Of a stretch of DNA of 64,000 nucleotides, positions 31,089-33,965 are shown piece by piece (position 1 is the stretch's first letter; each line of letters opens with the position of its first letter). The stretch lies in NCBI GenBank assembly GCA_951406725.2, contig OX597817.1:5518001-5582000 (forward strand). Direction: 5' to 3'. The position numbers and the translations under genes were made by a program. The notes under the pieces are model-generated. The model searched no databases and was not told the origin of the DNA. It worked only from the letters and a program-made list of their open reading frames with translations. Origin of the DNA: Octopus vulgaris (Eukaryota).

Positions 31089-33965
31089 CTGGGTCATCCC
31101 ATAAAGAATGCGGTTTTTCAATTGCATGAACTAAAGGTCGGAGGGGGATAGGATAAACTACTTGCATGAACTTGCTATAAAAGCAGGTAGTAATTTTACC
31201 TTGTACTTATTCTCAGCACAATTTTTGAAGAATTTGGTTTGTATTGCTGTTGTATTGTAGTTTAAATATTGTTGTACAGTTCGCAGAACATTTTGTTTCT
31301 TTTTTTTTGTTTTTTGGCAGACTGGTTGTACTTTCCCTCCTCATAGAGGAGGGTAGGCCAGGTACAAAAATGGAAGACATCAGATGTTAAGATAGCAGCT
31401 ACACAGAGGTGTCCGATTCTGAGCAGTCGGACATTCCATGGAACGCTAAGAAGGAGAAAAAAGCAAGGCTAAATAGAAGCTTCGCAGAGGTGGCAAAAAC
31501 ATCGGAAAGGAATGAGTGGAAGGACTATTCAAAAATGATGAAAAGGAAAGGAACTAATGTGGAAGTGGCTGTCCCAATAGATTTTGTTATTAATAGAATG
31601 GAATGTACGTTGGTATACAAGACACACTCAGGGTACGCAGGAAGAATCAACGAATTGACGAGAAATCAAGTAGAGAAAGCTGGAAGGAAATCAAATATCT
31701 AGCCAGAGGTAATAAATTTTAAACAGTTGAAGTTCAATTTAAGAATGCGACCGTAGCAAATCTGAACGTGGCAACAATCTTAAAAACTGATGAAGTGGTG
31801 ATGTTGTCGATATATCGTGGACGGCGCACGTAGAGGGAATCCCACCAGACGTCGATGTGGCCTGGATAGCAACCGCTGTCTTGTTCAGCAACGTGGAAGA
31901 GATAGCGGTTCTCCAGGCCACTAAGACGGAAACAAGAATCTGGAAAGGGCAATCCCTAAACATGGTGATTCAAGGACGGTGTAATAATGGTAGTTAGAGT
32001 AGATGGTAGGATTCCCAGATGCTACAAGTGTGGCGAGAAAGGCCACATTAGAGCAAACTGCCCTCTCTACAAGAGAAAAAGAGAAAGGAAGAACCGGCGA
32101 GAAAAAGGAAGAAGTAACATCACCACCACCACCAGCAGAAACAGAAGAGGAAAGCGGAACAGAAGGCGAATGGGTGACATCAGGCAAGATAAGGAAAAGA
32201 AAAAGGAGGAAACCAGGTAAAATAAAATCAGAACCCTGCCCCACCCAACACCCACCCACACCCTCTTCCTCCAACCCGCTCCCTACAGACGCTGAACCTA
32301 CCCACACCCATCTAACACAAAAACAAATACACAGTCAGACACAAGCCGTTCAATCTCCCCCACCCCTCGAAAAAAAGAAAAGAAGTAACTTTGCTATTAT
32401 GTATGACAATGCGAATAAAGACCTGTGTGAAGAAATAAAAAAGTGGAAAAATATAAGAGTGGTGGACACTTGCAAGTCCGACAATGTACAAGGGTGGCAT
32501 TGCTGCCTGTTTTAGGACGAGGAGCAGAAGGAAAAAGTGTTAGAATTCAAAGGAGGATTTGAAATGTGAGAAGTTGGACTGGACATCCAAAAATTACCAT
32601 GGAACACAGATTACATGCAATTACTAAAGGACTACGGTTTCGACATCTTGAAAAGCACCAAGTATAAAAAGAAAAAAATGAACAAAGGTAAAAATGATGT
32701 GACTCAGAGTTGGTGCTGAGAGTACTCATTTCATCTCTCATTTTCATTTTGTCATTCACTGTAACATGCACTTTCGTTCCTTTTTTTTTTTGTAATTTGT
32801 TTTATGTCCCCACATGTCCTTGTATTGTCCCCTCTATGTCAGCCCCTTGTGGGCAATAAAAAATACACTTATTCTTAGAGCAAATTTTGAAGAATGCATA
32901 TCGATTTTCCCAAAGCTCTAATGGAAGTGACAAAGGAGCATATTCGGCTTATTGTGCTTTATGAGTTCAATATGGGGATCAGACAATAAGCGTAAGCCAA
33001 TGTCATTGGTGGTTTCAGAAATTCCGAACCGAAAACAAAAGCCTGGCAGACGAGCCTCGTCCTAGAAGATCTGCAGAGCTCAACGAGGACGTCCTGCAAA
33101 CCCTGGTGGAATAAAATCCCATCGTAACTGTTGAGGAACTAGCAGAGAAGCTTGATTTCGTCATTCAACCATTTATCGACACCTGCGTACCATCGGGAAA
33201 ATCAGCAAATTGGGTCAATGGGTTCCTCCCAAACATTTCGAGTCTAATCGTGTATAGTGAGTGAATCTTTGCTCTTCTTTGCTGTCACGTTTCATGAATG
33301 AACCGCTTTTCGGCCGAATAGTGACTGGTGACGAGAAATGGGTTCTCTATAAAAATGTCAAGCGTGAAAACTAGTGGGTAGGGAAAGGAAAAACACCGGT
33401 ACCCCAGGCTAAAGAAGGTCTTCACCAACGTAAGGTGTTGTTATCTGTTTGGTGGGATATGAAATGTTTAGTCCACTTTAAACTTTTAAACCCAACCCAA
33501 ATGATAACAAAGATCTACTGCTAGCAGCTTGAGCAGCTTAAGCCAAGGCTAGGAGAAAAACGACATCTTTTGTTTCAAGACGAAAGGTGTTCTTCCATCA
33601 GGACAATTCTCGGCAACATACAGCCAGGATGACATTCCAAAGGCTGGAGCAGTTTGAATGGGAAACGATGCTCCATCCACCATATTCGCCGGACTTTGCC
33701 CCATTTGATTATCATTTATTCCGCAGTTTTCAAAATCATTTGAACGGAAAAATATGAATTCTGTAGACGAGGTCAGAACAGTATTAGATGAGCATTTTTC
33801 GTCACGGACAAGTAAATTTCGGAAGAAGGGACTTGAAAATCAACCAGATAGTTTGAAGAGCATTGTAGGAAATGAAGGAGAGTATATCTTAGATTAAAAG
33901 AACTTTGTTTATCTTAATTTTGAAAAATATAAGAAGTATAAAAAACCCACATTATTTATGGGATG

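Follow-up and report, generated by a model that had tools for sequence, protein, structure and literature searches.

In a 64,000-nt stretch of the Octopus vulgaris genome (hereafter the window; contig OX597817.1, positions 5,518,001 to 5,582,000 of the forward strand), a microsatellite- and SINE-rich segment of an animal genome, a 1,633-bp insert at positions 31234-32866 interrupts a mariner between its left terminal inverted repeat (TIR) and the start of its transposase. The insert is probably a decayed retroelement encoding only open reading frame 1 (ORF1) of a long interspersed element (LINE), copied in by the enzyme of another LINE, full-length and of L1/Tx1 type, for which recognition of a hairpin in the insert's tail is predicted. 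Use of a full-length LINE's enzyme in trans is likely because the insert has no reverse transcriptase (RT) gene and yet ends in the tail of a local short interspersed element (SINE); a comparable dependence is assumed for half elements of mammals and insects. An initial annotation of this DNA had proposed a three-tier system, with a Tx1-like LINE mobilising both an ORF1-only element and a SINE; the window does contain an ORF1-only unit with a target-site duplication (TSD), a tail common to this unit and SINE family A, and a LINE-like candidate partner end. The partner could be Tx1 or another L1-group LINE, Tx1 being a tentative assignment.

An ORF1-only insert within a mariner

The insert and its host comprise the following features:
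31091-31118, plus strand: left TIR of the host mariner
31205-31233, no strand: TSD, left copy, in mariner 5' untranslated region (UTR) sequence
31234-31369, plus strand: T-rich 5' leader of the insert (from sequence and fold), with an 8-bp hairpin just before the ATG
31370-32719, plus strand: broken ORF1 (from reading frames, Pfam and the relatives P0001-P0003)
32020-32061, plus strand: CCHC zinc knuckle within ORF1 (Pfam zf-CCHC, 30.3 bits, cut-off 20.8)
32720-32866, plus strand: T-rich 3' UTR of the insert, 147 nt (from tblastx and sequence)
32814-32866, plus strand: tail common to the insert and SINE A; a hairpin, GCCC-CUUGU-GGGC, is predicted at 32842-32854, ahead of a short A-rich end
32867-32895, no strand: TSD, right copy, abutting the 3' end of the insert
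32921-33897, plus strand: decayed mariner transposase gene
33942-33969, minus strand: right TIR of the host mariner (by TIR match), followed by TA repeats

Between the direct repeats the insert runs from a 136-nt leader through a single broken ORF1 to the 3' UTR that ends in the tail. The repeats, 29 bp long and identical at 25/29 positions, adjoin both insert ends exactly in a self-BLAST comparison, which bears out the earlier claim of a mariner insertion bounded by a 29-bp direct repeat; the same repeat score was reached in 17 of 2984 random flank pairs. The mariner TIRs (31092-31118 versus the reverse complement of 33942-33968) match at 23/27 positions, and the transposase remnants match Pfam Transposase_1 (E = 8.6e-19) and HTH_48 (E = 8.5e-5). 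When the insert and one repeat copy are excised, a mariner of 1,217 bp with 168 nt upstream of the ATG is left, close to the usual mariner layout. Because excision thus restores a normal-sized mariner with matching TIRs, the 29-bp repeat is best read as a TSD, and this duplication, together with the defined 3' end, supports that the unit was inserted by retrotransposition.

An LTR element or a retroviral gag remnant was ruled out. LTR elements are marked by long terminal repeats (LTRs) and a short TSD of 4-6 bp, and self-BLAST of the insert region revealed no LTRs, its only repeats being those of 29 bp and the mariner TIRs. There is no long poly(A) on the insert, and a short A-rich stretch lies directly at the TSD instead. 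We found no ORF2 remnant in the insert, for which tblastx against 9100-10050 returned one 9-residue match, in the tail (E = 0.45).

The leader segment 31310-31375 folds with z = -2.7, a value equalled in 3/200 shuffles, and the perfect 8-bp hairpin at 31335-31353, which closely precedes the ORF1 start, could act as a signal for translation or transcription. A pseudoknot in the leader, or a ribozyme like that of hepatitis delta virus (HDV), was considered and dropped, the candidate stems being adjacent, the P4 arm lacking and no Rfam match being present; Rfam and ARAGORN scans returned nothing in the window. Elsewhere in the window, a second mariner of another family (27180-27821) retains a long open 5' part (HTH_48, E = 4.9e-20), and a 147-bp repeat pair (30855-31001 and 36161-36307) flanks the block of mariner, SINE and gap. 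An older repeat, or a feature of the assembly close to the 100-N gap (34789-34888), may account for this pair.

A tail shared with SINE A and with a non-SINE element

Three SINE loci and one further element carry tails that can be compared directly with that of the insert:
34060-34432, plus strand: composite SINE, in which a unit with tail A precedes one with tail type C
44046-44460, plus strand: SINE A dimer with two tails and a 10-bp TSD (44036-44045/44461-44470)
60069-60302, plus strand: SINE A monomer with a perfect 21-bp TSD (60048-60068/60303-60323)
59653-59797, plus strand: 145-bp element other than a SINE, flanked by a perfect 14-bp TSD (59639-59652/59798-59811), hereafter the 59.7-kb element

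Positions 32814-32863 of the insert match a profile of the four SINE A tails with E = 1e-10, and the individual tails agree with the insert at 47/50, 46/50, 46/51 and 43/51 positions (84-94%). In each of three pairwise tests of the insert against SINE A, the tail score was reached by 0/1000 shuffles. SINE A monomers are 89-93% identical among themselves, about as similar as the insert tail is to SINE A, and the two are therefore of similar age. The near identity to SINE A noted in the initial annotation thus stands for the last ~50 nt and goes no further, since nothing alike occurs upstream of 32814.

Similarity that is both high (up to 47/50) and confined to ~50 nt, together with an AATAAA in the insert tail, speaks for a chimeric retrocopy, of a kind already known (PMC4494074). 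Reverse transcription would then have started on SINE A RNA and switched after ~50 nt to an ORF1 RNA, supplied by a LINE transcript or by a domesticated ORF1-derived host gene; alternatively, a SINE tail fragment would have provided the polyadenylation signal. We consider such a chimera quite unlikely, because the insert shares with the 59.7-kb element two tail characters that are absent from all four SINE A tails, namely an extra base after the first TTGT, and TGTCA in place of TGTTTA. A T-rich UTR of the same kind lies upstream of the tail in both. The 59.7-kb element is likely a 5'-truncated LINE-type 3' end; its end matches the SINE A tail profile with E = 0.003, and its score against the insert 3' UTR was reached by 0/1000 shuffles. 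Since the insert shares its two characters with an element that is not a SINE, its tail looks LINE-derived rather than SINE-derived, on two characters only. A SINE A copy follows ~270 bp downstream of the 59.7-kb element.

The TSDs of SINE A did not have the length of 16-21 bp first given for them: 21 bp and 10 bp were observed, and TSDs of 15-16 bp occur on three SINEs carrying other tails (B or C), not on SINE A. A single TSD encloses the dimer, in whose second unit the head is missing its first ~50 nt. The composite SINE begins at 34019, directly past the right end of the mariner, with the head of another SINE family, and no TSD was found for 34019-34432. By inspection, the six TSDs in the window have no common target motif, and the other tail-bearing elements with TSDs lie in unrelated sequences, with no target specificity in the window.

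A covarying hairpin at the 3' ends

Further SINEs of the window, and a LINE fragment, enter the comparison of 3' ends:
1598-1818, 10376-10598 and 13503-13659, minus strand: SINEs with the SINE A body and other tails
2963-3175 and 61951-62180, minus strand: SINEs with the SINE A body and other tails
20350-20526 and 34262-34432, plus strand: SINEs with the SINE A body and other tails
9180-10021, plus strand: decayed LINE 3' end, with an ORF2-like C-terminus (to ~9770), a 3' UTR and a diverged tail with the hairpin UGCU-CCUGU-AGCA (loop 9998-10002)

The SINEs that combine the SINE A head and body with tail B or C represent tail exchange on one SINE body.

A common 3' hairpin is a new observation of this analysis. 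Shortly before the 3' end, a 4-bp stem closing a YYUGU-type loop could be aligned across 14 ends (13 distinct), comprising four of SINE A, three of tail B, four of tail C, the insert, the 59.7-kb element and the LINE fragment; the alignment excluded short fragments and one copy (4415-4579) that shares the body but has no recognisable tail. The stem reads GCCC/GGGC in the insert and SINE A, UGGC/GCCA in tail B and the 59.7-kb element (with a 6-nt loop in the latter), GGGC/GCCU or AGGC/GUCU in tail C, and UGCU/AGCA in the LINE fragment. Paired cells make up 86.5% of 52, as compared with 55.9% in shuffles and 23-52% in slid controls; two-sided changes occur in 4/4 stem pairs, covariation is 0.77 versus 0.23 in shuffled alignments, and for three of five measures the observed value was reached in 0/500 shuffles. 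One pair is broken in four decayed copies, and the row of the 59.7-kb element is misaligned by its longer loop. The window contains 734 YYTGT sites, of which 26 have a closing stem of 4 bp or more. Nine of these 26 are then followed by at least six A in 12 nt (a threshold picked after the data had been seen); all nine are retroelement ends (seven SINEs, the insert and the LINE fragment).

As judged from the aligned sequences, the predicted pairing is preserved while the stem sequence varies among SINE tails A, B and C, the insert and the LINE fragment. Stringent LINE/SINE pairs are marked by a loop that is conserved and a stem that covaries (PMC3747384), and the predicted 3' stem-loop with its compensatory changes has the form of such a stringent-type tail. 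The occurrence of one predicted hairpin in the insert, three SINE tail types, the 59.7-kb element and the LINE fragment supports that a single tail-recognising LINE group may serve all of them.

A decayed LINE end with a diverged tail

The initial annotation had raised the question whether 9180-9760 belongs to an autonomous LINE with the same tail. In favour of this, a tail with the hairpin does lie on the same strand, ~200 nt past the ORF2-like end; with its different stem and diverged tail, however, the fragment probably represents a sister lineage and not the exact partner. No RT was seen in the fragment or in the insert. The score of the fragment's tail was reached by 13/1000 shuffles against the insert and by 0, 3 and 3/1000 against three SINE A tails. 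When the window was searched with the insert tail, the fragment's end ranked 7th of 502 segments, preceded by the insert itself, the 59.7-kb element and four segments of SINE A; its score was 33.5, and the background did not exceed 27. In the search with a SINE tail, three segments from other repeats ranked above it. No convincing TSD was found for the fragment, the best candidate being an 11-bp A-rich match ~4 kb upstream. A separate 143-codon open frame at 19841-20272 has no Pfam match and presumably resembles the C-terminal end of ORF2 from a LINE of another clade.

The broken ORF1 and its relatives

ORF1 extends over ~450 codons in five frame pieces, with four frame changes and internal stops at 31388, 31700, 32513 and 32567; it is a pseudogene, and this copy is dead. 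The claim that the insert codes only for a CCHC ORF1 held as regards content, zf-CCHC (E = 3.8e-7) being its sole Pfam match above the curated cut-off in the five ORF pieces scanned, with no endonuclease (EN) or RT, but the gene itself is broken. From its N-terminus it comprises an acidic/basic segment, a predicted region resembling an RNA recognition motif (RRM), one CCHC knuckle, a Lys/Pro-rich linker and a C-terminal domain of unknown fold.

A phmmer search of 1.84 billion representatives, for which the query was one reading frame covering the first 128 and last 214 ORF1 codons with the middle excluded, returned three relatives (P0001-P0003) with E-values from 2e-9 to 5e-4 and 37-41% identity. 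P0001 is UniRef100_A0A0L8GWT9 of Octopus bimaculoides, and P0003 is XP_036368115.1 of O. sinensis. All three are placed by tblastn along 31830-32548, and none of them covers 31370-31750. The end of P0003 matches 32609-32638 weakly (9/2000 shuffles), and the ends of P0001 and P0002 gave no match to the ORF1 end in the window (147/2000 and 477/2000 shuffles). Near 31975, the ORF1 of the insert is ~40 nt shorter than expected from P0003.

P0002 is a 1,135-aa Helitron gene model (Helitron_like_N, PIF1) with ORF1 in its middle, at residues ~477-690, and Helitron sequence flanking it at residues ~411 and ~731. These two Helitron parts normally lie close together. With no endonuclease or RT family among its nine Pfam matches, P0002 has the appearance expected if a second ORF1-only element had inserted into a DNA transposon, and lends weak support to further ORF1-only copies. 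Both ORF1 insertions with known context sit in DNA transposons, in the same sense as the host gene. When 7536 candidate proteins of 425-2000 aa were searched with a profile (A3), P0002 alone was returned, and therefore no full-length ORF1 or ORF1-ORF2 model, which is weak evidence; a word-based homolog search with the ORF1 frame returned 0 of 4317 candidates, and a PDB search with the A3 profile gave zinc-knuckle matches only (best E = 0.006).

Compared with the Atlas, the N-terminal 125 residues of P0003 matched clusters with ZCCHC3-type RNA-binding and CCHC domains (feature score 0.87, TM 0.57-0.61), a resemblance that we regard as a lead toward an L1/Tx1-type ORF1, not as proof. An RRM plus CCHC ORF1 of ZCCHC3 type also occurs in other clades. 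The same search ranked two other clusters among its top feature matches, one unnamed (0.91) and one of PRE_C2HC type (0.90; 24% of members). Structure predictions for ORF1 were of low confidence (pLDDT 37.5 and 39.3), and no Transposase_22-type domain was matched at E <= 0.1 in the five ORF pieces or the three relatives. The C-terminal domain is kept in 32390-32640 of the insert, in P0001 (residues 65-121) and in P0002 (residues 634-690), with 26-36% identity over the matched stretches. It had no Pfam, PDB or convincing Atlas match; the Atlas search with the P0001 domain, a low-confidence model, gave scores of at most 0.85.

Weighing the explanations

Several results weigh against an ORF1-only element served by a tail-recognising L1/Tx1-type LINE. 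As to the hairpin, two of the five covariation measures are not significant (82/500 and 182/500 shuffles), whole tails fold no better than shuffles (z from -0.7 to -1.2), the hairpin appears in the minimum-energy structure of only some ends, and the aligned rows are related, amounting to about five independent stem types. As to the clade, the presence of PRE_C2HC among the top Atlas scores means that ORF1 cannot fix it. As to the LINE fragment, its match to zf-RVT, a C-terminal zinc-binding region of ORF2, falls below the cut-off of 27.5 (E = 0.084, 14 bits), a homolog search with 9163-9759 among longer proteins returned 0/301 and a PDB sequence search 0, its tail is not significantly similar to the 59.7-kb element (174/1000 shuffles), and against the SINE A profile it reaches only E = 0.38 window-wide.

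The weak statistics of the LINE fragment and the PRE_C2HC cluster are in line with a coincidental hairpin or tail, or with a partner of another clade (e.g., I/Nimb/Jockey-type LINEs with a CCHC ORF1), 9180-10021 then being unrelated. We hold this to be very improbable, given the strand of the fragment's tail and its place past the ORF2-like end, its alignment to 4/5 other tails tested at no more than 13/1000 shuffles, and its retention of the hairpin with a different stem.

The remaining points bear on whether an ORF1-only family exists. Within the 64-kb window the join of ORF1 to the tail is observed in one copy only; ~40 nt have already been lost within the ORF1 of this copy, in which deletions therefore do happen; P0001 and P0003 come without genomic context, and full-length LINEs could be their source; and ORF2 can be spliced out as an intron in a gene model of the P0002 kind. 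A full-length LINE might accordingly have lost ORF2 in a one-off internal deletion, either during this insertion by a template jump or later, and no ORF1-only family would exist; the sharing of tails between SINEs and LINEs would remain real. Such a deletion is nonetheless unlikely in our view: the leader is complete, the join is clean just past the ORF1 stop, only 147 nt separate the stop from the tail end with no ORF2 codons found, and P0002, if only as a gene model, provides a second ORF1 insertion without EN or RT domains.

Discussion

The preferred reading of the insert, as an ORF1-only retroelement mobilised in trans, suggests the following course of events. The element would have arisen from a tail-bearing LINE through loss of ORF2 and then spread as a family, its ORF1 protein (ORF1p) coating its own RNA or mixing with that of the partner. 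The ORF2 protein of the partner LINE would bind the 3' hairpin and the A-rich end, as in the stringent-recognition model of LINEs, and reverse transcription in trans would be primed at the nicked target, giving TSDs of 10-29 bp without long poly(A). The SINE tails may have been acquired from the same LINE group.

ORF1-only LINEs are already known (HAL1, HeT-A and Ag-Sponge). Vertebrate L1-type ORF1, including that of mammalian L1, from which HAL1 derives, consists of a coiled coil, an RRM and a C-terminal domain (CTD), without a CCHC knuckle. HAL1 (half-L1) of mammals is non-autonomous, LINE-derived and encodes only ORF1p (PMC5753468, PMC5786205), and mammalian L1 is recognised through poly(A) (PMC3747384). 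Like HAL1, the insert encodes ORF1 only, with no EN or RT; unlike HAL1, it has a CCHC ORF1, lacks long poly(A) and ends in a structured tail that is also found on SINEs. HAL1 proper was rejected on the zf-CCHC match, the lack of a Transposase_22-type match and the short A-rich end in place of poly(A). HeT-A (Jockey clade), Ag-Sponge (CR1 clade) and HAL1 (L1 clade) form a class of ORF1-present, bipartite non-autonomous LINEs, in which a 5' part plus ORF1 has been fused to the parent LINE's 3' end and for which multimerisation of ORF1p with that of the partner has been proposed (PMC5786205). The insert likely works like a member of this class, and its ORF1p may multimerise with the partner's in the same way. 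The passage of PMC5786205 on this class names no Tx1-type or mollusc example; the insert would be an octopus case, known from one copy.

Stringent SINE/LINE pairs include eel UnaL2/UnaSINE, monocot L1 with ZmSINE, and Chlamydomonas L1-1_CR/SINEX-3_CR (PMC3747384). As in these pairs, the tails described here have a common 3' stem-loop with a covarying stem and a conserved loop; unlike in these pairs, the structure is found in three SINE tail types and also in an ORF1-only element, with an animal L1/Tx1-type LINE as the likely partner. Target-sequence preference is common, but not universal, in the Tx1 clade. Tx1-group elements and their passengers have been described inside DNA transposons, including mariner, as with crocodilian Tx1-Mar, SINEU and Xenopus Tx1 in Tx1D (PMC4494074). 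The insert resembles Tx1-Mar in being nested in a mariner and differs from it in that the tail-bearing elements of the window show no target specificity; SINEU differs in having snRNA heads and poly(A) tails.

SINEs account for 11.6% of the O. vulgaris genome, most of those recently active being unclassified, and 80 L1-Tx1 families are present, 13 of them recently active (PMC13282606). OK, OR1 and OR2 are named tRNA-derived octopus SINEs (Ohshima and Okada 1994; via PMC4758252 and PMC9115989). In a literature search whose scope excluded most subscription papers and the Repbase reports, we found no report of an ORF1-only element of Tx1 type or from octopus and no paper naming the partner LINEs of octopus SINEs; the tail motifs did not occur in the searchable literature text.

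A broader proposal, which we put forward tentatively as a possibility, is that octopus genomes hold a long-lived and diversified group of ORF1-only Tx1-type elements which, together with at least three abundant SINE families, exploits one stringent L1/Tx1-type LINE through a 4-bp YYUGU hairpin; the C-terminal ORF1 domain may help to capture the partner's enzyme. The copy described here is dead, and basic retrotransposon biology is unchanged by it. If the join of ORF1 to the tail proves to be multicopy, the insert would represent a further independent origin of a half-LINE beyond the three in PMC5786205, and an animal L1/Tx1-type case of stringent tail recognition exploited by two kinds of passenger. 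With the common covarying 3' hairpin as a handle, SINE families could be paired with the LINEs that serve them, and mutation assays would have a minimal element to work on.

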